Assembly (NCBI GenBank): GCA_964247135.1
Contig: CAXTTL010000149.1
Coordinates: 1 to 11,974, forward strand
Origin: an uncultured Deinococcales bacterium
Lineage (GTDB): Bacteria > Deinococcota > Deinococci > Deinococcales > JAAFIG01
DNA length: 11,974 nt
Direction: 5' to 3'
Shown here: positions 48-11,943 of the stretch, in pieces
Layout: the number at the start of each line of letters is the position of its first letter
Numbering within the stretch: position 1 is the stretch's first letter
Made by a program: the position numbers and the translations under genes
The notes under the pieces: generated by a model
What the model was told of the DNA's origin: nothing
What the model saw: the letters and a program-made list of their open reading frames with translations, nothing else
Databases searched by the model: none

Positions 48-109
48 GACACAAGCTTATTGATACCTTGAGAAATCAAAATATCATGTCCTAAACATTC
101 TCGAGCCGT

Positions 110-784
110 TTAAATTGTGTCTGCGAACAAACCTTGCGCCAAAAACCCAATAATCTCGAGGCTGGCTGCATCGATTTTATCGCCCATGATGGGTTTGATA
201 CCCGCGAACGCTTTTTCGTAACTTTTGACCGTCTCGAGCCAAGCTTTTTTGGTGGTGTACTCGAGCGTGGCTTTGCTCGGATTGTTGACGCGTTTAAACC
301 GTGCCGCCAAAACCGCGCTGGCTTTCTTGTATTCAGTTTGAATCTTGCTCGAGGTGAACGCCCCAGCTTTGGTGGTGGTCAGTTTGATTAATTTCTCGAG
401 ATGCAATTCGATGCTGGTCGCAAAGCGTGCCGGCATGTGCGCGAACATGGTGCCGCCGCCCGAAGTTTGGGATGCCAAATCGGATTCGGCAAGAATAAAA
501 TCCCACTCGAGTTTGCGCAGTTGAATCAGCCGCGCCTTCAGCTTGGGGAAATTTTGGAGTTTTGCCATACCCTGCGCGTTTTTACAATCCGCCCAGACGC
601 TTGCAGCCTGGTCTTGACCCGCCTCAGAACCGCCAAAATCGGTGCGCTTGCCGTACTCGGTCAAAAAATCATCGGGCAAAAATTTGAGGACAACATTGCA
701 AGCGGGTTTCCACTCGGCTTGTTGCTGCGCGAACACAACACCGAATAAAGCCAGCAAAACAATCAAAACCCGAGAAATCATCAT
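110..784 (-). CDS. Exported hypothetical protein (224 aa) with a Sec-type signal peptide
   Basis: Long ORF. N-terminus MMISRVLIVLLALFGVVFA/QQQ; two Cys; a GGGTMF motif loosely reminiscent of LprI/DUF1311 helical proteins (not established). TACACT-N6-ATG start. Confidence 0.75.
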   Translation of the reverse strand: MMISRVLIVLLALFGVVFAQQQAEWKPACNVVLKFLPDDFLTEYGKRTDFGGSEAGQDQAASVWADCKNAQGMAKLQNFPKLKARLIQLRKLEWDFILAESDLASQTSGGGTMFAHMPARFATSIELHLEKLIKLTTTKAGAFTSSKIQTEYKKASAVLAARFKRVNNPSKATLEYTTKKAWLETVKSYEKAFAGIKPIMGDKIDAASLEIIGFLAQGLFADTI

Positions 785-790
785 GCCTCG

Positions 791-796
791 AGTGTA
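791..796 (-). promoter_or_regulatory. -10 box TACACT for a leaderless transcript of 110..784
   Basis: TANNNT 6 nt upstream of ATG 784. It overlaps a CTCGAG (787-792) and a GTGTAA-N5-TTACAC inverted repeat. Confidence 0.6.
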
Positions 797-802
797 ACCG
801 AT

Positions 803-1576
803 TTACACCGCAGCGCTCATGCCACCATCGAAATTGATCGCGCAGCCCGAAACAAACGCCGCACGAGCACTGACCAAAAACGCAATCAAATCCGCGAATT
901 CCTCCGCTCGAGCCACGCGCCCAAGTGGAATGCCTTGCGCCAACCCCGCGTACACTTGCTCGAGCGTCTGCCCTGTGGCTGCCGCACGACGATTCCATTG
1001 ATCCGACTCGACCAGACCAATCATGATGCCATTCACCCGAATGTTGTCCTTGCCCAAATCCTTGCTCATCGCCTTCATCAGCGCCATTCCAGCCGCTCGA
1101 GACACGCTGGAAGGCATCGAACTGGCGGCAGGGGTTTTGCCACCCGTCGCCAAAATGTTGATGATGCTGCCACCACCCACCGCACGCAAATGCGGAATCA
1201 CCAACTTTGAGAGTCGGATTGCCGCATGAAATTTAAGGTCGAGGTCTTCAGCCCAGAGTTCGTCCGAAATGCTTTCAAACGGCATGGCGGCAGCTTTACC
1301 AGCATTGTTCACCAAGGCGTCAATCCTTCCAAAGTGCTGCATGGTCAAATCCACAAACTGCTTCAAATCCTCAAGCTTCGTGACGTCCGTCGTGACCGCC
1401 AGTGCCCGACCACCCGAGGCGTTGATGCCCTCCGCCACCGCCCGAAGTTTGTCCTGACCTCGAGCACAAATGGCAACACTTGCCCCCTCAAGCGCCAGTT
1501 TTTGCGCCGTTGCCGCGCCCAAACCATCCGAACCACCCGTGATGAGGACCACCTTATTTTGGAGTTCTAAATTCAT
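803..1576 (-). CDS. SDR family oxidoreductase (257 aa), atypical subgroup lacking YxxxK
   Basis: TGGSDGLG Rossmann motif, NNAG, IRVN, C-terminal DGG. The YxxxK position reads SSVSR. Start reassigned to MNLELQNK (1576) from typical SDR length and TAAACT-N5-ATG. Confidence 0.92.
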
Positions 1577-1581
1577 AAGAC

Positions 1582-1587
1582 AGTTTA
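1582..1587 (-). promoter_or_regulatory. -10 box TAAACT, leaderless SDR transcript
   Basis: TANNNT 5 nt upstream of ATG 1576, no SD. Confidence 0.65.
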
Positions 1588-1639
1588 ACGCCAAAATTGG
1601 TTTCACTCGAGATGCCCAAATAACTTCTTCACGAACGGG

Positions 1640-1645
1640 TATACT
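1640..1645 (+). promoter_or_regulatory. -10 box TATACT for rlmN
   Basis: Near-consensus hexamer 7 nt upstream of in-frame ATG 1653. Confidence 0.6.
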
Positions 1646-1657
1646 CCTCGAAATGCA

Positions 1658-1712
1658 GGGCGCAGCAAGCAGTGCCCCTACGAAATTGGGCACAGCCGCC
1701 CATACGGAATCA
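1658..1712 (-). repeat. Decayed tandem GTAG-family REP array at the rlmN 5' end
   Basis: The reverse complement of 1658-1681 is GTAG-GGGCAC-TGCTTGCT-GCGCCC. It is followed by a shortened direct copy GGGCACAGC-CGCCCATACGGAATC (1688-1711) and a GGGCA stub. Confidence 0.65.
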
Positions 1713-1724
1713 GGGCAAATTTTT

Positions 1725-2759
1725 ATGACTTACCTCCTAGACCACCACCCAGACCAATACCCGCTCGAGTCATACCGCCGCAAGCAATTGCTGGAATGGG
1801 TGTTCAAACACGGCATCTCGAGTTTTGGTGAAATCTCGAACCTGCCCAAAACGGCGATTGCGTTTCTCGAGGAAAACTTTGAGTTAACCGCATTCCCGAA
1901 AGTGGAGGTTTTTCCCAGCACCGACGGCTCGAGCAAGTATTTGTTTACGCTGCGCGACGGCAAGCAGATGGAAGCCGTTTTAATGCCTTACCAGGACCGC
2001 GTGACGATTTGCGTCTCGACGATGGTCGGATGCCCTGCGGGTTGCGCCTTTTGCGCGACTGGACGCATGGGTTTTGGGCGCAACCTGACGGCTGGTGAAA
2101 TTGTCGAACAGGTGCTGGTGGCAGCTCGAGATCAGGAACTTGCGCCCACCGAAATTCGCAATTTGGTCTTCATGGGCATGGGCGAACCGCTTTTAAATTA
2201 CGACAACACGCTCGAGGCAGCCCGAATTTTACTGCATCCTGACGGGCTTGGCATGAGTCAACGCCGCGTGACGCTCTCCACGGTTGGACTGCCCGATAAA
2301 ATTGTCAAACTCGCCAGTGAAGATGTTACGGTCAAGCTTGCCATCAGTTTGCACGCCCCAGACGAAGAAACCCGCAAGCAAATCATTCCCACCGCGCACG
2401 CGCACACCATCGAAGCCATTCTGGAATCGGCAAGGGAATACCAACGCGCTTCGGGACGCCGCGTGACCCTCGAGTACGCGATGCTGGCAGGCGTGAACGA
2501 CGCGATCTGGCAAGCCGAACTGCTCGCGGACATCCTGCGAGGGCTGGTGTCACACGTCAACCTGATCCCGATGAACCCTTGGGCGGAATCGGGTTTTAGA
2601 AGCTCATCAGAGACCCGAATTCAAGAATTTTACGACACCCTGCAAGCCCGAGGTGTGCCTGTCAGCGTGCGCCGCTCGAGGGGACGGGATGCGGGGGCGG
2701 CGTGTGGGCAGTTGGCGATTGCGAAAACGCCACGGGTGATCTCGAGCGATGGGGTTTGA
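1725..2759 (+). CDS. rlmN: 23S rRNA (A2503-C2)/tRNA methyltransferase RlmN, radical SAM (344 aa; possible alternative start at 1653, 368 aa)
   Basis: TICVS (resolving Cys), CPAGCAFC (CxxxCxxC), MGMGEP, SLHAP, NLIP and AACGQL (methyl-carrier Cys). Confidence 0.95.
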
Positions 2760-2760
2760 A

Positions 2761-3285
2761 TTACTGATCGCCGCTGGCTCGAGGTTTTGAACGCATCCTG
2801 AAAAAAGCAAAAATCAATGCCAGCAACGTGATGACGATTGGCACAAGGAAAATCAGCAGCAGCGAAGGCGTTGTTGGCGTTACGGTTCTGGCTTTGGTCG
2901 CTGCCCAAACCCAGGAGGCAATATTGAGGTTGGCAGGTCGGGGCAGGTCGCCTTTGAAACTGTAACGAAGCGCCTCTTGCGGGAAGGTACGGTCAACAAT
3001 GCCCAACTGGTACGACCCTGGCGGGACACTCAGCACAGCTTCGTACCGTCCAGGCAGGGTTTCTTTGAGTTTGATGGTTTGAACAGGGTCGTTGCTATTA
3101 AGGGCTTGAATCTCGAGGTCGATGATTGCCCCAGTGATTGCCGATCCGCTGTCCGCGCCCAACAAATTGACTTGCAATTGCGACGTTGCGGCTGTCGGGA
3201 ACGATGCCAGCACCCGAACAGGCTCGAGGTGCGCGAGGGCAAGCCCAGACAGGAGCATGAGCAAAACAACCAAAAATGGCTTCAT
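2761..3285 (-). CDS. Exported, C-terminally membrane-anchored protein with a YtkA/FixH-like beta domain and probable mature His1 (174 aa)
   Basis: Signal peptide MKPFLVVLLMLLSGLALA/H; LKETLPGRYEAVLSVPPGSYQLGI resembles YtkA-like domains; Thr/Pro linker, TM helix, basic tail RMRSKPR. TATGCT-N7-ATG supports the start at 3285. Confidence 0.7.
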   Translation of the reverse strand: MKPFLVVLLMLLSGLALAHLEPVRVLASFPTAATSQLQVNLLGADSGSAITGAIIDLEIQALNSNDPVQTIKLKETLPGRYEAVLSVPPGSYQLGIVDRTFPQEALRYSFKGDLPRPANLNIASWVWAATKARTVTPTTPSLLLIFLVPIVITLLALIFAFFRMRSKPRASGDQ

Positions 3286-3292
3286 GGCTTTG

Positions 3293-3298
3293 AGCATA
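3293..3298 (-). promoter_or_regulatory. -10 box TATGCT, internal leaderless start just after the xdhC stop
   Basis: TANNNT 7 nt upstream of ATG 3285. Confidence 0.5.
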
Positions 3299-3307
3299 CA
3301 ATCAGGT

Positions 3308-4123
3308 TCAACCCAGGCTTTCAACAAACTCGAGCATCGTTAAGAGTTGCGCGGCAACGGCAATGGCGATCACTTCGGGTTGCTTGCCGCGAATGCCAGG
3401 CACACCAATCGGCGTGGTCACTCGAGAGAGGTCGGCATCCGTAAAACCCCTGGCTTTTAACTGCGTTTGAAACCGCGTCCATTTGGCACTCGAGCCGATC
3501 AAACCAATGTATTTCAGGTCTGGGCGGTGCAATGCCGTCTCGAGAATCGTGATGTCTTCGCTGTGATCGTGTGTCAAAATCAAAACAAACGCTCCAGGTT
3601 TCAGCTCAGACATGACAAATTCGGGTGATGGATGTGGGAAGTTGAATGTGCGAATCTGAGCGATGCTCGAGAATCCTGTGAAGCGCGTGGTTTCCAGCAT
3701 GTCGCTTCGAGAATCGATGAGTAAAAGCTCGAGCGGCAACGCCGAGAGAATTCGCACCAACGCCAACCCCACATGTCCCACCCCAAAAATCGCCACCTGA
3801 GATCGTTCTGGAATCATCGGCTCGAGCAACAATTTCACCTCTCCCCCGCAGCATTGCACCCCAAATTCGGCAACCGCTTTTTCGGTCAAAGTCACCTCGA
3901 GAAACTCTGGAATTCGAGCAACACGCTCCAGCATCACTCGAGCTTTTTTGACCGCCACCGCCTCGAGATTCCCACCGCCCACACTGCCAAAAACCGCATC
4001 TCGAGAGACGATCATTTTTGCGCCCGCCGACCTTGGACTGTGACCCCGAACACTGGCAACCGTCACCATGACGCAAGATTCACCCCGAGCATTAAAATTT
4101 TTTAGCACCTCGAGCCAGTACAT
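3308..4123 (-). CDS. xdhC: Xanthine dehydrogenase accessory protein XdhC (Moco sulfuration/insertion)
   Basis: GHSPRSAGAKM, GSVGGGNLE, QCCGG, FGVGHVG, LTHDHSED, YIGLIGSSAK and PEVIAIAVAAQL. Directly downstream of xdhB, with SD GAGGGG. Confidence 0.93.
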   Translation of the reverse strand: MYWLEVLKNFNARGESCVMVTVASVRGHSPRSAGAKMIVSRDAVFGSVGGGNLEAVAVKKARVMLERVARIPEFLEVTLTEKAVAEFGVQCCGGEVKLLLEPMIPERSQVAIFGVGHVGLALVRILSALPLELLLIDSRSDMLETTRFTGFSSIAQIRTFNFPHPSPEFVMSELKPGAFVLILTHDHSEDITILETALHRPDLKYIGLIGSSAKWTRFQTQLKARGFTDADLSRVTTPIGVPGIRGKQPEVIAIAVAAQLLTMLEFVESLG

Positions 4124-4151
4124 CTTAGCCCCTCAACGTCTAGCCAAAACT

Positions 4152-4190
4152 CCCTTCTCCCGCTGGCGGGAGAAGGGTCGGGGATGAGGG
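4152..4190 (-). repeat. BoxC-like palindromic element (CCCTCATCCCCGACCCTTCTCCCGC-CA-GCGGGAGAAGGG)
   Basis: Perfect 12-bp arms 4152-4163/4166-4177 plus a pyrimidine-rich CCCTCATCCCCGA leader on the minus strand, 6 nt after the xdhB stop. Confidence 0.75.
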
Positions 4191-4196
4191 TGGCAT

Positions 4197-6494
4197 TCAA
4201 ACACGTTCCACTTCTCGAGCCGCATCTTTCACCAGTTCGATTGCGTTTAAAATCGCCTCTGGCGTGCTCGGGGCAGCCAACTTGACTTCCAACCCCCCAA
4301 AGCTCGAGATGGCATCTTTTAAAGCTCCACGGACGCTGATGGCAAGCATCAGTGGTGGTTCGCCCACGGCTTTGGAACCGAAAACGGCTTTGTCTTCGGT
4401 GGCTCGAGGCAGCAGGTCAACATGAAACTCGAGTGGAATGTCGGCGAGGGTCGGGATTTTGTAGGTGCTCGGCGCGAAGGTGCGAAGTTTGCCCGTGTCG
4501 TCCCAAACGAGTTCTTCCATCGTCAGCCAGCCCATGCCTTGAACAAATCCGCCCTCGACTTGTCCGCGATCCACGAGCGGGTTGATGCTGTCGCCGCAAT
4601 CGTGCAGAATGTCGGCGCGGCGCAAATGCCACATGCCGGTTAAGGAATCGAGTTCGACTTCGCTGACGGCAGCACCCCAGGCAAAGTACCTGAATGGTTC
4701 GCCGCGACCTGCAATTTTGTCGTAATGAATTTCTGGCGTGCGAAAAAACCCTGTGCTCGAGAGTGAAACCCGCTCAAGATAGGCTTTCAAAACCACTTTT
4801 TCAAACTCGATTTTTTGATCATGATGTACCGCAAAACCGTTTTCAAACTGTACCTCGTCGCTCAAGCAGCCCAGCATTTCGGCGGCGATTGGCGCGAGTC
4901 GTTCGCGCAAAACCTCGCAAGCATTTTTTACGGCGGCACCGTTCAAGTCCGTGCCACTCGAGGCGGCGGTGGCGCTGGTGTTTGGCACTTTGTCGGTGCG
5001 GGTTGGCATGACCCGAACTTGCTCGAGCTTGACGCCCAAAGTTTGCGCGGCGATTTGCGCGATTTTGGTGTGCAAGCCTTGTCCCATTTCTGTGCCGCCG
5101 TGGTTGACTTGAACGCTGCCATCGCTGTAAATCAGTACGAGTGCACCGGCTTGATTTAAAAAAGTGGTGGTGAAACTGATGCCAAACTTAACAGGTGTGA
5201 TCGCCATACCACGTCGCAAAAACGGGTGACTCGAGTTGAATTTTTTAACCTCGACTTGACGGTTTTCAAAGTCGCTCGAGGTTTTTAAGCTTTGCCAGAT
5301 GTTTTGAATTCGCACATCCGAAATGGTTTGCCCGTAATGCGTGGTGTGTTGCTCGAGTGAATTTTCGTTGTAAAAATTGAGTTCCCGCACCACTTCAGGG
5401 CGCTGGTTTGTGGCTCGAGCGACAGCATCCAGAATGTCTTCAATCAAGACCATGCCTTGTGGTCCACCAAACCCCCGAAACGCCGTGTGCGAGGTGACGT
5501 TGGTCTTGCAAACAAAACCCTTGACCATCAGGTTTGGAATAAAATACGCGTTGTCGCAGTGAAACATGGCGCGGGAAACGATGGCTTCGGACAAATCCAA
5601 ACTCCAACCGCCATCGGCGTAAATCTCGAGTTGTAACGCCTCGAGTTTGCCGTTTTGATCGAAACCCACACGGTACTTGCCGAGCATTGGGTGGCGTTTT
5701 CCAGTCAATTGCATGTCCATGTGTCTGGTCAGTCGAACGCGAACGGGGCGTTTGGTTTTGAGCGCCACGACTGCCGCCACCGCCGCGTAAGGATTGGCTT
5801 GAGATTCCTTGCCGCCAAACCCGCCACCCATCCGCAAACTTTGCACGCTGACCTTGTGTCGCGCCCAGCCGAGCACGTGCGCGACAACCGCTTGGGTCTC
5901 AGACGGGTGTTGGGTGCTCGAGTGAACAGTCATGCAGCCGTCCTCGTCCAGAAACGCAAGGCTGGCTTGCGTCTCGAGGTAAAAATGATCTTGACCACCG
6001 ACCAGAATTTCACCCTCGAGCGTCAGGGTTTGCGCCAGAATTTCGTCTGGCTGACCGCGCAGAATGGTCAACGGTTCGGTGTGATACGACAGCGCATCAA
6101 TCGCGTTTTGAATGCCCAAAATCGGCTCGAGGATTTCGTACTCGGGTTTGATCCGCGCCGCGCCCGCTCGAGCCGCATCGTCGGTTTCGGCAATCACCCA
6201 AGCGAGGGCTTGCCCAAAGTACATCACCTCGCTCGAGAGCAATGGTTCGTCGTGTTTGACCGCGCCCGTGTTGTTCTCGCCTGGAATGTCCGCTTCGGTC
6301 AGCACCGTCACCACACCCACCACCTCGAGCGCAGCAGCAACCTCGAGTTTTACAACCTTGGCTTTCGCGTGAATGGCTTGAACTGGGTACGCCACCAGCA
6401 CGCCTTTCATGTCCAAATCGGCGGTGTATTTTGCCACACCCGTAACATGCAGTTTTGCACTTTCGTGCGTCAAACTTTTCCCCACAGCTTTCAT
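4197..6494 (-). CDS. xdhB: Xanthine dehydrogenase molybdopterin-binding subunit
   Basis: QDHFYLE, GGGFGGKE, AFRGFGGPQG, GTEMGQG, SATAASSG, GQVEGG and SKAVGEPP (catalytic Glu). ATGA overlap with xdhA. Confidence 0.96.
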   Translation of the reverse strand: MKAVGKSLTHESAKLHVTGVAKYTADLDMKGVLVAYPVQAIHAKAKVVKLEVAAALEVVGVVTVLTEADIPGENNTGAVKHDEPLLSSEVMYFGQALAWVIAETDDAARAGAARIKPEYEILEPILGIQNAIDALSYHTEPLTILRGQPDEILAQTLTLEGEILVGGQDHFYLETQASLAFLDEDGCMTVHSSTQHPSETQAVVAHVLGWARHKVSVQSLRMGGGFGGKESQANPYAAVAAVVALKTKRPVRVRLTRHMDMQLTGKRHPMLGKYRVGFDQNGKLEALQLEIYADGGWSLDLSEAIVSRAMFHCDNAYFIPNLMVKGFVCKTNVTSHTAFRGFGGPQGMVLIEDILDAVARATNQRPEVVRELNFYNENSLEQHTTHYGQTISDVRIQNIWQSLKTSSDFENRQVEVKKFNSSHPFLRRGMAITPVKFGISFTTTFLNQAGALVLIYSDGSVQVNHGGTEMGQGLHTKIAQIAAQTLGVKLEQVRVMPTRTDKVPNTSATAASSGTDLNGAAVKNACEVLRERLAPIAAEMLGCLSDEVQFENGFAVHHDQKIEFEKVVLKAYLERVSLSSTGFFRTPEIHYDKIAGRGEPFRYFAWGAAVSEVELDSLTGMWHLRRADILHDCGDSINPLVDRGQVEGGFVQGMGWLTMEELVWDDTGKLRTFAPSTYKIPTLADIPLEFHVDLLPRATEDKAVFGSKAVGEPPLMLAISVRGALKDAISSFGGLEVKLAAPSTPEAILNAIELVKDAAREVERV

Positions 6495-7942
6495 GCGTTC
6501 ACCCCAGCATTCTCGAGCCAGAATTTCTCGAGTAAATTGGGAATGATTCTGGCGCGGTAACTGGCACTCGCACGAGCGTCGGAAATGGGTTTAAACTCGA
6601 GCGCCAGAACTTTCTTGGCGCTTTCGACAGTGGCATGATTCCAGGCTTGACCGATCAGCGTTCTCTCAGTCTCGAGCGCCCGAATGGGGGTGACTGCCAC
6701 ACCACCAAACGCCAATCGCGCTTTGGTCACAAGATTGTTTTCCGTCTCGAGGTGAAATGCCGCCATGACGGTGCTGATGTCGTCGTGACCGCGTTTGGCG
6801 ATTTTGTACATGGCTTGCAATTGTTGTTTGGAAGCCTGACCATGTAGGGGCGAGGCGTGCCTCGCCCCTACGGGATTGGTCACCCCAACATTCTCGAGCG
6901 GAATCCGAATGGTTTTGATCAATTCAAATGGCTCGAGCATCGTTTTTCGGTAGCCCAGAAAATAACCCGAGAGTGGCACAATCCGTTCTCCCCTGCTCGA
7001 AACCAGCACCAGCTCCGCCTCGAGTGCCAGCAAGACCACGGGCGCGTCACCGATTGGCGATGCCGTGCCGAGGTTGCCGCCCAGAGTGGCGCGGTTGCGA
7101 ATTTGACGCGAAGCAAACCAAGTCCAGAGTTCATTCAGCAGCGGAACCCGCAATTCAGTCTCGAGTCTGGAAAGTGGTACACCAGCGCCGATCTCGAGGA
7201 AAGCTTGTGACTCCCGAATCTCGAGCAGTTCGGGGCAAGCCTCGAGCGAGATCAGGTTTTCAAATTTCTTGAACGCCGTCGTGATCTCGAGCGCCATGTC
7301 TGTACCGCCAGCAATCACGCGGGCGTTGGGCAGTGTCTCGAGCAAGTGCAACGCTTCGGATAGCGTGTCAGGGCGGTGAAATCCATTCATTGAAAAAGCG
7401 GGTTTGCGGACACTCGAGGTTTTGAGTCGCTCGAGGAACGGGTCGTTTGGATTTGGTTTGGGCAGGGCGTGGGCGGCTTCACGAATTGGTCTGTAACCCG
7501 TGCAACGACAGAGGTTTCCGACCAAGGCGGCTTCGTCAAACCTTGGGTTGCCAGCATAATTTTCGCTAAACATGCTCATGACAAAACCTGGGGTGCAATA
7601 GCCGCATTGACTGCCGCCAGCGCTGGACATGGCGTTTTGAACCGCGTGAAGCGCCTCGGGTTGCCCAATCCCCTCAGCCGTCCAGACCTCGAGTCCGACC
7701 GCCGTGGCTGCCAGCATCAGGCAAGAATTCACGGCTTGATACTGGGGTTTGCCGCTGGCGTCTGGGGTTAACACCGCAACTGTACACGCGCCGCAATCGC
7801 CCTCCGCGCAGCCTTCTTTGGTTCCCGTCAAACCGCTTTCACGAATAAAATTTAAGAGCGTGGTGTTGTGATCCAGACCCTCGAGCGAGACTGAAACGCC
7901 GTTCAGTGAGAAATGGGTGGCGTGTTGAATTTGATCTGTCAT
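6491..7942 (-). CDS. xdhA: Xanthine dehydrogenase small subunit (2x[2Fe-2S] + FAD)
   Basis: GTKEGCAEGDCGAC, QCGYCTPG, GNLCRCTGY, AGGTD, QIRNRATLGGN and SDARASASYR. Confidence 0.95.
   Translation of the reverse strand: MTDQIQHATHFSLNGVSVSLEGLDHNTTLLNFIRESGLTGTKEGCAEGDCGACTVAVLTPDASGKPQYQAVNSCLMLAATAVGLEVWTAEGIGQPEALHAVQNAMSSAGGSQCGYCTPGFVMSMFSENYAGNPRFDEAALVGNLCRCTGYRPIREAAHALPKPNPNDPFLERLKTSSVRKPAFSMNGFHRPDTLSEALHLLETLPNARVIAGGTDMALEITTAFKKFENLISLEACPELLEIRESQAFLEIGAGVPLSRLETELRVPLLNELWTWFASRQIRNRATLGGNLGTASPIGDAPVVLLALEAELVLVSSRGERIVPLSGYFLGYRKTMLEPFELIKTIRIPLENVGVTNPVGARHASPLHGQASKQQLQAMYKIAKRGHDDISTVMAAFHLETENNLVTKARLAFGGVAVTPIRALETERTLIGQAWNHATVESAKKVLALEFKPISDARASASYRARIIPNLLEKFWLENAGVNA
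6844..6871. repeat. GTAG-family REP palindrome inside the xdhA coding sequence
   Basis: GTAGGGGCGAGGC-GT-GCCTCGCCCCTAC, perfect 13-bp arms, translated as VGARHASPL. Confidence 0.85.
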
Positions 7943-7965
7943 AATGAATTATAGACGCAGGAGGG
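7937..7965. promoter_or_regulatory. Compact divergent promoter between xdhA and the lipoprotein gene
   Basis: Minus strand: TATAAT (7953-7948) 5 nt before the xdhA ATG. Plus strand: TG-T-CATAAT (7937-7945), then SD AGGAGGG (7959-7965) before GTG 7976. Confidence 0.6.
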
Positions 7966-7975
7966 ATTCTCGTTC

Positions 7976-9124
7976 GTGAGCCACACCCGAAACCGTTGGA
8001 ATCTGGCGGCTCGAGCGGTATTGTTCGGGATTTTAATGTTGTTGGTGGCTTGTAACGATCCACCAAATTCCAAACAAACCACCAACCAACTCGAGCACCT
8101 GGGCAACCCGTTCCTCGAGAAACCAGTTATGGCGCGAAATGTTTGGGACATGAAGGTATTTGATGGTCAACTCTATTTTGGTCACGGTGACACCGTGGCG
8201 AATTCTGGACCGATCAAGTTGTTCAGGTTCGATACAACCACCAAACAGTTTATTTCCGATTTTACCGTCGATGACGAATCCATTAACGGTTTTGATGTGG
8301 TCGGCAATCAACTGGTCATCGCGGGTTCCGACCCGCAAGAAGCTTGGGAGTTGGGCAATTTTTACCGCCTCGAGGCGGGAACTTGGCACAAGCACCGCAC
8401 GATTCCTTGGGGGCTTCACGCCTATCAACTGACCGAATTTGAAGGCAAGCTGTTTGTTGGCATCAGCACCGATCACTTGCACCCGAGTTTGCTCTCCTCG
8501 AGCGACCAGGGATTGACCTGGCTCGACGCGACAAACAACCAATTTCTGGATCGTCCTTTCAACAAACTCATCGTGTTAAACCAGCAACTTTACGCCACCG
8601 GACTGCTCGAGACGGGGACACTCAAGCTCGAGCATGGCGTGTTTGAGGGTGCGAATATTCCTCTAACACAAATTGCGCCAGGCTTAACGCCCGATGCGCC
8701 AATGCTGATCCAAAAGCTCGAGTATTTTAAGGGTGGCGTGGTCTACACGGTTGGCAAGCGTCAAATGTACACGACCGACCCGAGCGAGGAGCGTTTTGAA
8801 ACAATCGCGCAAGCCGCGTTTTTCAGCAGCAATTTTCGGGACACCGTAGCGATTCCCTTGCCAAAGGACAGCGTCCCAACCGATATTCTTTTAAAAGATG
8901 CTCAGGTTTTGATTTTAACGCACCGCAAACTCGAGGTTGGTTTTGAAAACATTGTCATTCAAAGTGATGACGCGCATTCTTGGAAGGAAACCCTGCGTTT
9001 CTCGAGCGACAGTTTTGCGCGGTCATTCGAGTTTTTGAAGGCTCAATTTTATTTTGGTTTGGGTTGTTATTACACTGAACAAAACTGCAATGCGAACGGT
9101 GATGTCTTGCGGTTCACGCCATAA
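7976..9124 (+). CDS. Lipoprotein with Asp-box (BNR) repeats, probable beta-propeller, function unknown
   Basis: Lipobox LVAC; SSDQGLTW and QSDDAHSW Asp-boxes; repeated blade-like motifs (FDGQLYFG, FEGKLFVG, LNQQLYAT, LKAQFYFG); SD upstream. Confidence 0.75.
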   Translation: MSHTRNRWNLAARAVLFGILMLLVACNDPPNSKQTTNQLEHLGNPFLEKPVMARNVWDMKVFDGQLYFGHGDTVANSGPIKLFRFDTTTKQFISDFTVDDESINGFDVVGNQLVIAGSDPQEAWELGNFYRLEAGTWHKHRTIPWGLHAYQLTEFEGKLFVGISTDHLHPSLLSSSDQGLTWLDATNNQFLDRPFNKLIVLNQQLYATGLLETGTLKLEHGVFEGANIPLTQIAPGLTPDAPMLIQKLEYFKGGVVYTVGKRQMYTTDPSEERFETIAQAAFFSSNFRDTVAIPLPKDSVPTDILLKDAQVLILTHRKLEVGFENIVIQSDDAHSWKETLRFSSDSFARSFEFLKAQFYFGLGCYYTEQNCNANGDVLRFTP

Positions 9125-9240
9125 ACTCGAGCCTCTGGGCTTGCAAAAGCATTATTTTGAAAATCCCATGCATCAATCAGACAGGGGTAAAACTGTGTTG
9201 ACCTCGGTTTGTGAAGGATTTTTCTTAGAAAAAGATTTTG

Positions 9241-9299
9241 GTAGGGTGCGCCGTGCGCACCGTCATCTACGTACTCATGGTGCGCGAGGCGCACCCTAC
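9241..9299. repeat. Inverted REP doublet (REPIN-like) between convergent genes
   Basis: GTAG-GGTGCGC-CGT-GCGCACC (9241-9261), a 17-nt spacer, then GGTGCGC-GAG-GCGCACC-CTAC (9279-9299). Confidence 0.85.
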
Positions 9300-9364
9300 A
9301 GTTTTGGAGTTTTTGAAAGAATCATTCTGGTTTCTCGAGGGTCAACATCCTAGGTATCTCTGCA

Positions 9365-9913
9365 TCAATTGGGCTTACCGAAAGTCACCACCCAGTACGC
9401 ACCGCGTTTTGCCAGTCCAACTTGGGTAAAATCACCGTCCATGACGTTGTTGCAGTGGCGGTTGGGGCTGTTCATAAAACCGTTCACACCACTGACCGAA
9501 TCCTTGTTAACGACCGCCACAACGTCAGGTTGTCCCGCCGCAATATTCTCGCCAATCGGGTTGCCCTGATAGCCTGCCGCCATAATCCGTCCGACAACCG
9601 CGCCGTCACCCGCCCCATTGTGTGGATCGCCAGTGGTGATGTCAACGTTATTTTGTTCGAGCCAACGCGCGTGGCTGAGGGCGGCAAGCTCGAGTTTGTC
9701 GCTCGAGGTGTAATCTTTGCTGGCTGGAATCGCTGGGAAGGTTTCGTTGTTAAAAATGCAGGTTCGGGCAGCGTGTCTGGCGAGGTTCAATTCGTTTAAA
9801 AAATCGGCTTTGAGTTGTATGGTCAGTTCGTTTGCGCCGCCCTCGGTCAGTTTAAAGGTGTTGCACGAAACCAAGAATGCCAAAAGCAAAAATCCAACGA
9901 TGGGTCTTTTCAT
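9365..9913 (-). CDS. CAP/SCP-domain lipoprotein (182 aa)
   Basis: Lipobox LVSC; LNLAR...C, AALSHA, AGY...GENIAAGQ, SPNRHCNNVM, FTQVGLA and YWVVTFG. TAAAGT-N7-ATG supports the start at 9913. Confidence 0.88.
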   Translation of the reverse strand: MKRPIVGFLLLAFLVSCNTFKLTEGGANELTIQLKADFLNELNLARHAARTCIFNNETFPAIPASKDYTSSDKLELAALSHARWLEQNNVDITTGDPHNGAGDGAVVGRIMAAGYQGNPIGENIAAGQPDVVAVVNKDSVSGVNGFMNSPNRHCNNVMDGDFTQVGLAKRGAYWVVTFGKPN

Positions 9914-9920
9914 AGCAATC

Positions 9921-9926
9921 ACTTTA
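9921..9926 (-). promoter_or_regulatory. -10 box TAAAGT, leaderless CAP gene
   Basis: TANNNT 7 nt upstream of ATG 9913. Confidence 0.55.
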
Positions 9927-10040
9927 GCGTCAACTTAAACGTTTCAAGGCGAAAAACCAGCACAAATCGTTCAACACGAACTGTAAGACGGCTCGGGTTT
10001 ACACCTGAACGATTCTGGAACGCAAAGCCTCAAAACAACG

Positions 10041-10046
10041 TATCGT
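10041..10046 (+). promoter_or_regulatory. -10 box TATCGT, leaderless VWA-FHA gene
   Basis: TANNNT 7 nt upstream of ATG 10054, no SD. Confidence 0.55.
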
Positions 10047-10053
10047 ATCAAGA

Positions 10054-11943
10054 ATGAAATTCTTGTCCTCGAGTTTACGCTTTGGTTACATTGGCGCGAT
10101 TGCCTGCGTGGTCGCAGCCATTTTGTTCGAGCTGTTGTTTCCGAGTGCGACCACGACTCCAGCCGTGAACGTGCCGACAGATGTGGCACTGCTAATTGAC
10201 ACCAGCGGTTCGATGCAAGATCAGGGCAAAATCGATGAGGTCAAGCGTGCCGCCAGCGATTATGTCTCCAAGCAACCCAGCACGACCCGTGTGGCGGTGG
10301 TGCGTTTCTCGAGCGACGCCCAGATTGTCAGTCCGCTTGGGGCGGCGACCAGCGAGCATCTCAGCGCCATCAATTCGTTTAACGCCGACGGTGCGACCAA
10401 CATGGCAGATGGCTTGCAGACCGCAGCCCAGGCACTCGAGGCGGATGCTGGCACCCATACAAGCCGCACGATTTTACTCTTTACCGATGGCGAGCCAGGC
10501 TCGAACCTCGAACCCGCCGATGTTGCCAAACCCAAAACGGTGCAAGCCGCCGATGGCATTCGGGCTGGTGAGATTCGGATTGTGGCGGTCGGCACCAACG
10601 ATGCCGACATCAACTTCTTGGCTCAAGTCACAGGCGACCGAAACCTGTTCTTTGCCACCACCGCAGGGCAGTTTTCGGACGCCTTCCAAAAAGCCGACAA
10701 CGCCATTCGCGGCTTGTTCAAATCCAGCGGCGGCAGCGTGCTCGAGGTGCTCGGCGGTGGCTTGGCTCGAGGCGCTTTGACGGCTTTGATTCTAGCGGCG
10801 GCATTGTTGATTGCCGAGAACGTGCTGGGCTTGCGCGGACGCTGGTGGCGCGACCTGGCATGGATTCCGTTGGTGGCTGCCGCCCTCGGTGCGGGCGGCG
10901 CACTGATCGGGCAACTGTTGTTCGGTTTATTCGGCGGCGGCACGGTTGCCCGCGCGTTGGGCTGGGCGCTGTTTGGCGCGGCGGCAGGCGCAATGCTCGG
11001 GCTTGCTGACCGATCAAAGAGCAAAGCCACCCGTGGCGCGGTCGGCGGTGCCATCGGCGGCTTTCTGGGCGGTTTTGTCTTTGACATTCTGGCGCAAGGC
11101 TTGCAGGGCGGCTTGGGTGAGGTTGTGGCTCGAGTCTTGGGTTTGGGCGCACTGGGTTTTGCGATTGGTTTGATGTTGCAACTCGCGCAGCAGGCTTTAA
11201 AAACCGCCTGGCTTTCGGGCATCACCACCGGTCCTTACGAGGGCAAACAGTACATTCTGGGTAAACCCATCGTGACCGTCGGACGTTCGGACGGCAACGA
11301 CATCGGTTTGTACCGTGAGAAAACCCTGGCGTTGAAAGCGGGCGCATTTGCCTTCAACCAAGGACGTTGGACCTACGCTGGCACACCAGTCGAAGTGAAC
11401 GGCTCGAGCACCGCCAGCGCCACCTTGACGGGCGGCGACACGATTCAATTTGGCAACACGCAATTCTTGTTTGAAGAGCGCGGTGCAAACTCGAGCATCC
11501 CAGAACCGAGCAACCCGAGCATCCCAGAAACACCTGAAATCCAAAGTGTACCCTCGAGTGCACCCTCTAACCCAAACCAAACCGATGTCTTTCAGATCAA
11601 TCAAACCGGTAGCGCACCCATCGAAAGACCAAACAAAACGCCGTCGCTGGCAACAGGCTGGCAGTTGGTCGCGCCAACCCAAACCATCACCCTCGAGCTT
11701 GGCAAGACCCTGCACCTCGGACGCACCACCAGCAACGACATTGTTCTGCCAGATTCGAGCGTCAGCAGCAAACACGCCCTCCTGGAAGTGCGCGGCGAGG
11801 CTGTTTACTTGACCGATTTGGGCAGCACCAACGGCACGAGCGTCAACAAGCACCGAATTCAAACCAACACCAAAATCATGCTTCATGCCGGTGACCAGAT
11901 CGCTTTTGGCGCAAGTGCTTTTATGTTGCAAAAAACTAGCTGA
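10054..11943 (+). CDS. Membrane protein: TM - VWA (MIDAS) - 5 TM - degenerate FHA - Pro/Ser linker - FHA
   Basis: DTSGSM, GATN and LFTDG MIDAS motifs; Gly-rich hydrophobic helices; VTVGRSDGNDI (FHA1); LGRTTSNDIVLPDSSVSSKHA...DLGSTNGTSVN (canonical FHA2). Confidence 0.9.
   Translation: MKFLSSSLRFGYIGAIACVVAAILFELLFPSATTTPAVNVPTDVALLIDTSGSMQDQGKIDEVKRAASDYVSKQPSTTRVAVVRFSSDAQIVSPLGAATSEHLSAINSFNADGATNMADGLQTAAQALEADAGTHTSRTILLFTDGEPGSNLEPADVAKPKTVQAADGIRAGEIRIVAVGTNDADINFLAQVTGDRNLFFATTAGQFSDAFQKADNAIRGLFKSSGGSVLEVLGGGLARGALTALILAAALLIAENVLGLRGRWWRDLAWIPLVAAALGAGGALIGQLLFGLFGGGTVARALGWALFGAAAGAMLGLADRSKSKATRGAVGGAIGGFLGGFVFDILAQGLQGGLGEVVARVLGLGALGFAIGLMLQLAQQALKTAWLSGITTGPYEGKQYILGKPIVTVGRSDGNDIGLYREKTLALKAGAFAFNQGRWTYAGTPVEVNGSSTASATLTGGDTIQFGNTQFLFEERGANSSIPEPSNPSIPETPEIQSVPSSAPSNPNQTDVFQINQTGSAPIERPNKTPSLATGWQLVAPTQTITLELGKTLHLGRTTSNDIVLPDSSVSSKHALLEVRGEAVYLTDLGSTNGTSVNKHRIQTNTKIMLHAGDQIAFGASAFMLQKTS
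11488..11529 (+). repeat. Short in-frame duplication (24-nt period) in the FHA-FHA linker
   Basis: AACTCGAGCATCCCAGAA (11488-11505) and AACCCGAGCATCCCAGAA (11512-11529), giving SSIPEPSNPSIPE. Confidence 0.7.

Follow-up and report, generated by a model that had tools for sequence, protein, structure and literature searches.

The closest described systems to the element reported here are the highly iterated palindromes (HIPs) of cyanobacteria, namely HIP1 (GCGATCGC) and the alternate HIPs GGCGCC, GCsGC, GGGATCCC, rCCGGy, TCGATCGA and CAGGCCTG. To our knowledge, every known case is cyanobacterial, and the function of HIPs has been open for three decades. The literature describes a HIP distribution that is quasi-periodic at the 10-90 kb scale (Xu 2018), a rise in transformation efficiency conferred by HIP1 (bioRxiv 10.1101/2024.09.10.611283), and a proposal that HIP1 is a possible DNA uptake signal (PMC13756078). 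Uptake sequences approximately double the peptides that they encode, are missing from genes that have no homologue in related genomes, and are thought to be able to accumulate by molecular drive, according to PMC2817400. The present analysis concerns the hexamer CTCGAG in a stretch of 11,974 nt (the window, meaning the whole stretch at its full length), which lies on contig C149 of a genome designated G000. The results show CTCGAG to be a genuine highly iterated palindrome that is found throughout a family of the Deinococcota, where a weak, pervasive directional force acting on the DNA word, not on proteins, keeps approximately one site per 150 bp.

The window contains exactly 100 CTCGAG sites, from the one at 100-105 to the one at 11692-11697, equivalent to 8.4 per kb. 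In 200 dinucleotide-preserving shuffles of the window, the mean count was 2.14 (sd 1.40), the largest was 7, and none of the 200 reached 100. The initial annotation of this DNA had counted about 100 sites where about 3 were expected, and had put the excess at about 30-fold; the count and the expectation were both borne out, and the fold excess was a fair estimate of the genome-wide observed/expected ratio (O/E). The genome (5.09 Mb in 386 contigs, median 9 kb, 52.7% GC, 84% complete) carried 33,925 CTCGAG, or 6.66 per kb. The O/E was 24.8, 35.2 and 14.4 under Markov models of orders 0, 1 and 2, respectively; the values at order 3 (3.45) and order 4 (1.24) are uninformative because their sub-words are dominated by CTCGAG itself. 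CTCGAG was the commonest hexamer of the genome; words that overlap it came next, and no unrelated hexamer exceeded 6,081 copies. The density was 2.6-11.3 per kb on every contig, and the word was missing from one of 2,358 two-kb intervals. Weak flank preferences were present, with G at -1 and C at +6 in ~39% of sites, and A at -3 and T at +8 in ~37%. These preferences were unchanged at 5,103 purely non-coding sites. As the flanks contribute little, the unit is the hexamer.

The coding and non-coding DNA of G000 were compared using crude gene calls (4,564 genes based on open reading frames (ORFs), covering 84% of the genome), which missed at least one gene of the window, and the frame counts are accordingly approximate. 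The density was 6.61 per kb in coding and 6.95 per kb in non-coding DNA. The non-coding DNA held 5,663 sites, compared with 177 expected from its own composition, and intergenic segments trimmed by 40 bp at each end still held 3,067, compared with 121 expected; the two comparisons put non-coding DNA at 25-32 times the expectation. Within genes, five synonymous-codon shuffles were performed, which kept the protein, the dipeptides and the codon usage of each gene, the codon usage being itself inflated by the motif. The 28,217 coding sites compared with 3,845-4,054 after shuffling (~7-fold). All three frames were enriched: frame 0 (CTC-GAG) with 17,610 sites against ~3,100 (5.7-fold), frame 1 (nCT-CGA-Gnn) with 4,220 against ~295 (14-fold), and frame 2 (nnC-TCG-AGn) with 6,387 against ~550 (12-fold). 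The enrichment thus survives a codon- and dipeptide-preserving null, and the earlier judgement that codon or dipeptide bias is insufficient to explain it holds, since sites are no sparser outside genes than inside them and each frame is enriched.

The enrichment is not confined to the window. All 19 genomes of the family, which represent five genera and include one single-contig genome, contained 12,028-35,442 CTCGAG, at about 4.3-6.8 per kb when computed from rounded genome sizes. A survey of the Deinococcota had been proposed in the initial annotation, and the phylum sample analysed here comprised 201 genomes from one order and five families. The largest genus (83 genomes), which we take to be Deinococcus, had 26-1,010 CTCGAG and no enrichment. 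A genus of 30 small genomes, presumably Thermus, had 1,455-2,803, approximately equal to the control word GAGCTC. Three more genera of the family that holds the latter genus had 3,336-18,927 CTCGAG (GAGCTC control, 278-4,391), and another family had 514-10,948, with 13,562 in 3.8 Mb in one odd genus. The lineages of intermediate density are presumably the Meiothermus group and the Trueperaceae. The excess is therefore family-wide, graded in other Deinococcota lineages (2-3.6 per kb) and lacking in the two largest genera, with a range across the phylum of <0.1 to 6.8 per kb. In 80 loci around homologues of XdhB, which is encoded in the window, the median was 0.08 CTCGAG per kb; the densest were in a Truepera metagenome-assembled genome (MAG; 3.0 per kb), a Meiothermus MAG (2.9 per kb), two bins, a Deinococcota MAG (2.5 per kb, 50% GC) and a Trueperaceae MAG. 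The distribution indicates that the trait either dates far back in the phylum or arose there repeatedly, and that it is most extreme in this family; several of the transitions in density across the Deinococcota appear to be independent. No photosystem reaction-centre gene was found in G000 (84% complete), and the two protein clusters nearest to its RlmN were commonest in the Deinococcota; judging by these genes, the lineage is not a cyanobacterium. The central proposal of the initial annotation, of a highly iterated palindrome outside cyanobacteria that arises from a genome-wide process, is supported.

Several further observations were made on composition and on related words. The GC content of rlmN ranged from 0.47 to 0.65 among the genera of the family and the CTCGAG enrichment was kept in all of them, which indicates that the word is not tied to one base composition. 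The reversed word GAGCTC (the SacI site) had no copies in the 5.09 Mb of G000, compared with ~1,369 expected; it had 3-161 copies in 17 of the 18 other family genomes and 568 in the remaining one, G008. Other palindromes were nearly absent from G000, including GGGCCC (1 copy), CGGCCG (3), AGGCCT (4), CGTACG (5), GGATCC (7) and CCGCGG (11), as well as the short palindromes GGCC (O/E 0.02) and CTAG (O/E 0.07). Dozens of palindromes were avoided, which points to long exposure to many restriction systems. In the IMG/VR viral collection, among the matches listed for three closely spaced CTCGAG, the contigs L227, L283 and L236 had 4-5 CTCGAG per kb, with CTCGAG/GAGCTC counts of 24/0, 13/0 and 14/0, respectively; these contigs may derive from phages that infect CTCGAG-rich bacteria. 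Among the matches listed, high-GC viral contigs with 4-7 CTCGAG per kb were few, three of them lacking GAGCTC, and most of the matches were single sites consistent with chance.

The features of the window that bear on the following results are given below, each with the analysis on which it is based.

100-11697, no strand: CTCGAG population, 100 sites over the whole window (exact count compared with 200 dinucleotide shuffles)
4197-6494, minus strand: xdhB, 21 CTCGAG sites (Pfam and site list)
6491-7942, minus strand: xdhA, 18 CTCGAG sites (Pfam and site list)
1470-2759, plus strand: rlmN, 9-10 CTCGAG sites, the gene behind the 19-genome codon alignment (Pfam and site list)
2125-2130, no strand: CTCGAG site in rlmN, a lineage-specific convergent gain (congener and 19-genome alignments)
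100-105, no strand: non-coding CTCGAG site outside ORFs (site list compared with ORF list)
787-792, no strand: non-coding CTCGAG site, its two flanking genes convergent or adjacent (site list compared with ORF list)
9126-9131, no strand: non-coding CTCGAG site, 2 bases past the stop codon of the gene at 7976-9124 (site list and stop-codon offsets)
9334-9339, no strand: non-coding CTCGAG site within a repeated element of ~170 bp (site list and repeat BLAST)

The gene labels of the initial annotation (SDR, radical-SAM RlmN, XdhC, XdhB, XdhA, CAP and VWA-FHA) were confirmed by Pfam, and a recount returned the same numbers of sites for xdhB and xdhA. All five of the sites that had been called intergenic (100, 787, 1606, 9126 and 9334) were present. 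The site at 1606 lies inside the maximal ORFs of both the SDR gene and rlmN, and its intergenic status consequently hinges on the true start codons.

CTCGAG sites are better conserved than comparable words. In 10 comparisons with five congeners (83-87% identity), 63-86% of the window sites were conserved, compared with 40-51% of all hexamers. In an alignment of 268.6 kb with one congener at 85.9% identity, 78% of 1,944 sites were conserved, compared with 47% of all hexamers, and CTCGAG ranked first among the 318 hexamers that occurred 150 times or more. The conservation in this analysis was 82%, 66% and 78% in frames 0, 1 and 2, respectively, and 71% in non-coding DNA (compared with 43%). Site turnover over the same 268.6 kb comprised 423 sites of G000 that were not shared and 239 that were present only in the congener. 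The codon alignment of rlmN from 19 genomes contained 27 columns with CTCGAG in at least one genome; the sites were common within a genus and mostly different between genera. In four Deinococcus-like or Thermus-like outgroup genomes (f3 g7, f5 g9), rlmN had 0-1 sites. The initial annotation had raised the convergent gain of sites relative to orthologues, and this was seen between genera, with several rlmN columns showing independent gains in separate genera. At window position 2125, for example, the sequence was CCAGGG in all four of the congeners aligned and CTCGAG in both G000 and G012, a genome of another genus (column 811).

Relative to the background rate for each base change, the gain of CTCGAG from its six transition neighbours was 2.5-4.0 times as frequent and the loss of CTCGAG to these neighbours 0.12-0.19 times as frequent, a pattern that held equally at all six positions, in every reading frame and in non-coding DNA. 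In a stationary two-state model, with the background averaged over all aligned sites, a single scaled coefficient (S) of 2.7-3.3 reproduced both (predicted gain 2.9-3.4, predicted loss 0.13-0.20). The data fit one weak directional force with S of ~3, as either weak selection or a conversion-like drive would produce. The polarity of the changes was available for the 12-kb window only. The single-step replacements included 30 C>T changes at position 3 and 30 at position 1; the central CpG is therefore no more mutable than the outer positions, which argues against 5-methylcytosine. The one-off transition neighbours were not depleted (O/E 1.16-1.73), and CTTGAG and CTCAAG were at 1.16. Non-conserved sites carried three or more changes in 27.6% of the 423 cases, compared with 11.6% of all hexamers. 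A reading of these multi-base differences as templated writing was considered and not adopted, as relaxed constraint after the loss of a site explains them equally well.

The spacing of CTCGAG in G000 is more even than random. The minimum distance between sites was 7 bp, and relative to a geometric expectation gaps of 7-20 bp were found at 0.33-0.67 times, gaps of 51-200 bp at 1.2-1.26 times and gaps of 401-800 bp at 0.74 times, while 13 gaps exceeded 1.6 kb (0.7 expected). Site conservation by distance to the next site was 0.70 (7-20 bp), 0.78 (21-170 bp) and 0.86 (171-300 bp), a weak dependence (rho 0.04, p 0.09) that is confounded by local identity. The density was flat across genes and rose ~2-fold in the first 25 bp downstream of them. 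The commonest offset after stop codons was +2, with 164 sites compared with ~35 at neighbouring offsets (3,348 genes); at this offset, the last A of the stop codon falls on the favoured -3 position. In three-kb intervals poor in CTCGAG, the palindromes that the genome otherwise avoids were 3-4 times more frequent and the GC content was lower (rho -0.24), as expected for recently acquired DNA that is still to be converted, the word accumulating with residence time. A gene for an N4/N6 methyltransferase of 258 aa (G000:C189:4856-5632, minus strand) had no CTCGAG in 777 bp, where ~5 were expected, and is probably a recent acquisition.

The word has left an imprint on the proteins. Leu-Glu (LE) was the most over-represented dipeptide of the predicted proteome (O/E 2.37, 22,836 occurrences), and 77% of LE was written CTCGAG, compared with 11% expected. 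The O/E of Glu-Leu (EL) was 1.02, and none of the 9,778 EL occurrences was written GAG-CTC. XdhB contained 12 LE, ten of them written CTCGAG; its 80 homologues averaged 4.5 LE (range 1-9). At eight of these ten CTCGAG-encoded positions, LE was rare, occurring in 0-11 of 78-80 homologues, and the usual pair was ID, LD, YA, LQ, LH or IE. The DNA word pushes tolerant protein positions to Leu-Glu.

The genomes were searched for genes that could underlie the pattern. The initial annotation had offered methylation-directed repair as one possible process, and had suggested searches for an orphan XhoI/PaeR7I/TaqI-like methyltransferase and for Vsr-type nucleases. G000 had at least 11 DNA-methyltransferase candidates. 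Five of its methyltransferases were traced in 12 other family genomes and were found in 5, 11 (two of these being close orthologues), 4, 3 and 5 of them. No family-wide orthologous DNA methyltransferase was found using six Pfam families in MAGs that were 57-94% complete and one closed genome. A Pfam sweep of five family genomes from five genera returned no match to PF01555 in the closed genome G011 and no match to PF00145 in G008, leaving no family-wide C5 methylase; MT-A70 was found in one of the five. N6_Mtase/Eco57I and D12 proteins were present in all five, were 24-41% identical between genera, and for the most part carried HsdM_N (type I). A D12-class adenine methyltransferase (G000:C320:2119-2985, minus strand), 73-82% identical across genera g1 and g3, was found in six of 13 family genomes, and the G000 copy had an in-frame TGA. 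Vsr (PF03852) was found in none of the 19 family genomes. The XhoI nuclease family (PF04555) was present in four of the 201 phylum genomes, with no match in G000 or the two other family genomes of the phylum sample, and the methyltransferases that adjoin these nucleases, used as probes, had no G000 homologue above 28% identity. As far as gene content shows, the analysis thus lends no support to a conserved orphan methylase, to 5-methylcytosine combined with VSP repair or to an XhoI system. A methylase specific for CTCGAG may still be hidden, as specificities are unreadable from sequence and the genomes are mostly incomplete. The competence gene product ComEC (PF03772) was identified in 18 of the 19 family genomes, with open frames of ~770 aa, the miss being in a genome that is 79% complete; it was also present in 10 of 14 control genomes.

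The explanation that we favour is a transmission or recombination drive that acts through a dimeric reader. The exact symmetric word and its weak symmetric flanks (A -3, G -1, C +6, T +8) point to a dimeric protein as the reader. A putative DNA-binding dimer of this kind would bind AAGCTCGAGCTT-type DNA in preference to one-off variants, probably while DNA is being exchanged or repaired by recombination. Preferential transmission or retention of word-bearing DNA would result in a molecular drive of the kind proposed for DNA uptake sequences and HIP1. Judging by gene content, such a drive would involve no conserved orphan methyltransferase, no repair of the Vsr type and no restriction system of the XhoI type. 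This route was placed first because of the parallels with uptake sequences and the transformation work on HIP1. We assign the whole statement, including the drive and its reader, a probability of roughly 0.4. A more specific version is doubtful: CTCGAG might be a methylation-independent self-recognition word of the Deinococcota, favoured by a dimeric receptor or recombination factor during transformation or double-strand-break repair, with the drive rewriting ~13,000 positions to Leu-Glu. If true, CTCGAG would be the first uptake or recombination signal in the form of a 6-bp palindrome, and its rise would be an independent origin of HIPs that ties them to DNA exchange.

Several results weigh against the drive through a dimeric reader. 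No candidate for the reader protein was identified in this analysis. Known uptake signals are 9-12 bp long, asymmetric, not palindromic and present at ~1 per kb, and CTCGAG, a palindrome of 6 bp at 6.7 per kb, is unlike them. The phylum's classic examples of natural transformation come from Thermus and Deinococcus, and the genera taken for them are without CTCGAG enrichment. As ComEC also occurs in control genomes, its presence in the family is weak evidence for uptake. The coefficient S cannot separate selection from biased transmission, because both give the same substitution pattern, and its value rests on an assumed stationarity and an all-site background. Finally, the even spacing is not clearly the result of selection for coverage, because conservation depends only weakly on distance.

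Alternative explanations were weighed against the same evidence. The word could be a selected protein binding site, recognised by an abundant nucleoid-associated or chromosome-structuring dimer, with weak selection on each site for packing or segregation. A palindrome with a symmetric flank preference that extends to non-coding DNA would suit such a protein, as would the short-range repulsion with its excess of 51-200 bp spacings, the conservation of positions in both coding and non-coding DNA, and an S of ~3 per step, which suits many weakly selected sites. We know of no nucleoid protein with a strict 6-bp GC-rich word at such a density, no candidate was found among the genes considered, and conservation is nearly independent of neighbouring sites, so that we regard this explanation as unlikely, although a chromosome-structure role has been proposed for HIP1 (PMC5861425). 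A methylation-coupled ratchet of the kind proposed for HIP1 and the alternate HIPs, with an orphan methyltransferase acting on CTCGAG or on its TCGA core and methyl-directed repair converting near-cognates, has in its favour the report, in PMC4390886, that cyanobacterial genomes with HIP all have a matching methyltransferase. The family also has many methyltransferases, including the candidates in G000 and the D12-class and N6_Mtase-class genes in every family genome swept, and XhoI-linked methyltransferases occur elsewhere in the phylum. Against it, none of the five traced G000 methyltransferases is family-wide, PF01555 and PF00145 each lack a match in one genome, the N6_Mtase and D12 proteins are divergent between genera and mostly of the HsdM_N type, the XhoI-linked enzymes have no close counterpart in G000, the central CpG is not hypermutable, and the one-off neighbours are not depleted. 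We consider the ratchet distinctly unlikely.

Hexamer-specific biased mismatch repair by a non-Vsr nuclease, in which one-off heteroduplexes are corrected to CTCGAG and the sites are functionless, appears to us just as improbable as the ratchet. It would account for the raised gain and lowered loss, symmetric at six positions, for the equal coding and non-coding densities, for the nearly autonomous conservation of sites, and for the overriding of amino-acid identity at tolerant positions. In Escherichia coli, Dcm/Vsr produces small enrichments and depletes the T:G-derived neighbours, and the corresponding neighbours here, CTTGAG and CTCAAG, are not depleted; Vsr was not found in the family, no other candidate nuclease was found in the analysis, and the regularity of the spacing is not predicted. 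A protein-level or translational cause, with either Leu-Glu or the codon pair CTC-GAG under selection, would agree with frame 0 being the commonest (17,610 of the 28,217 coding sites), and is refuted by the non-coding density, the enrichment in frames 1 and 2, the unremarkable Glu-Leu value and the homologues that lack LE at most positions; it can be given practically no weight. The same negligible weight applies to an assembly, adaptor or binning artefact. The assembly is fragmented and incomplete, as such an artefact would have it, and the artefact is refuted by the presence of the word on all contigs and in 19 separate genomes from five genera, one of them a single contig, with sites at orthologous, in-frame positions.

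The window contains other elements of note. A REP-like element of ~50 bp at 4140-4198, with a 13-bp GC-rich hairpin stem and no CTCGAG, had 69 BLAST hits in G000 and dozens in each congener at 94-98% identity. A MITE-like repeat of ~170 bp at 9175-9355 has a long internal palindrome with a predicted fold of -72.7 kcal/mol, and had 56 BLAST hits in G000, mostly to a 60-bp core. At 2763-2765, between rlmN and the next gene, two congeners (G002:C206 and G001:C199) carry an insert of ~2.4 kb that encodes a C5 DNA methyltransferase of 466-480 aa; the spot downstream of rlmN looks like a variable restriction-modification islet. The closest homologues of XdhB were 55-61% identical and spread over cyanobacteria, Deinococcota (including Meiothermus), Acidobacteriota and Verrucomicrobiota, which suggests that the xdh cluster moves between phyla. 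The use of XdhB as a taxonomic marker of the host was dropped, as its best hits are scattered over phyla and the gene looks transferred.

The Deinococcota case provides an independent instance of a HIP, with a different word at several times the density of HIP1. It would make it possible to separate the general traits of HIPs (a DNA-level force with S of ~3, conservation and a proteome imprint) from what is peculiar to cyanobacteria (the DmtA/DmtC methylases). The strength of the enrichment is graded across related genera, some of which are probably culturable (the Meiothermus and Truepera groups, 2-3.6 per kb), and gene content set against CTCGAG density across ~200 genomes is a natural comparative design for finding the reader. 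The 2.4-fold excess of LE shows strikingly that a DNA word can override protein sequence. On the practical side, XhoI would reduce DNA of this kind, if unmodified, to fragments of ~150 bp, and CTCGAG density could mark the residence time of a gene in these genomes.

In comparison with known systems, the target of the XhoI/PaeR7I restriction-modification system has the same six letters; unlike the targets of resident restriction systems, which are normally avoided, CTCGAG is the commonest hexamer. With Dcm/Vsr of enterobacteria (CCWGG) it shares the idea of biased repair by which the target of a methylase becomes more frequent, and differs in having no Vsr in the 19 genomes, no family-wide C5 methylase found in the Pfam sweep, and no depletion of deamination-type neighbours. 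The Dcm/Vsr effect in Escherichia coli is also an order of magnitude smaller than the enrichment here. Like the uptake sequences of the Pasteurellaceae (USS) and the Neisseriaceae (DUS), CTCGAG is a short word that is over-represented in coding and non-coding DNA, approximately doubles its encoded peptide (LE 2.37) and is sparse in foreign-looking DNA, and, like the DUS dialects described in PMC3630211, it is common to a family with graded strength. The more-even-than-random spacing of CTCGAG counts as a further parallel with uptake sequences. It is shorter, symmetric and denser than USS and DUS, for which uptake bias has been experimentally shown.

The resemblance to the HIP class is the closest. 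A search of full texts, with subscription journals and supplements mostly outside its scope, returned no prior report of over-represented CTCGAG or of a HIP-like element in the Deinococcota, and CTCGAG is not among the words listed in the main texts of the HIP papers searched. What is new here is a HIP-like word in a new phylum, with a new sequence, a higher density and no methylase partner found. Unlike the HIP class (Elhai 2015), no word-specific methyltransferase was found to be common to the genomes that carry CTCGAG; as no family-wide methyltransferase, Vsr or XhoI nuclease was found, it is HIP-like in pattern, without the methylase link of HIP1. It further differs from HIP1 in its Deinococcota host and in being a hexamer and not an octamer. 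Like the HIP class, it is the most frequent and most over-represented word of its length, is enriched in three frames and in non-coding DNA, and is better conserved than comparable words. As described for HIPs in PMC4390886, PMC5861425 and PMC13756078, in which the function is given as unknown, it spreads by substitution and not by insertion, and related lineages differ in degree. Its order-2 O/E of 14.4 is at the low end of the 15-300-fold range reported for HIP1, and its frequency of 6,663 per Mb compares with 300-2,700 per Mb for HIP1 and 1,000-2,000 per Mb for the alternate HIPs (PMC4390886).

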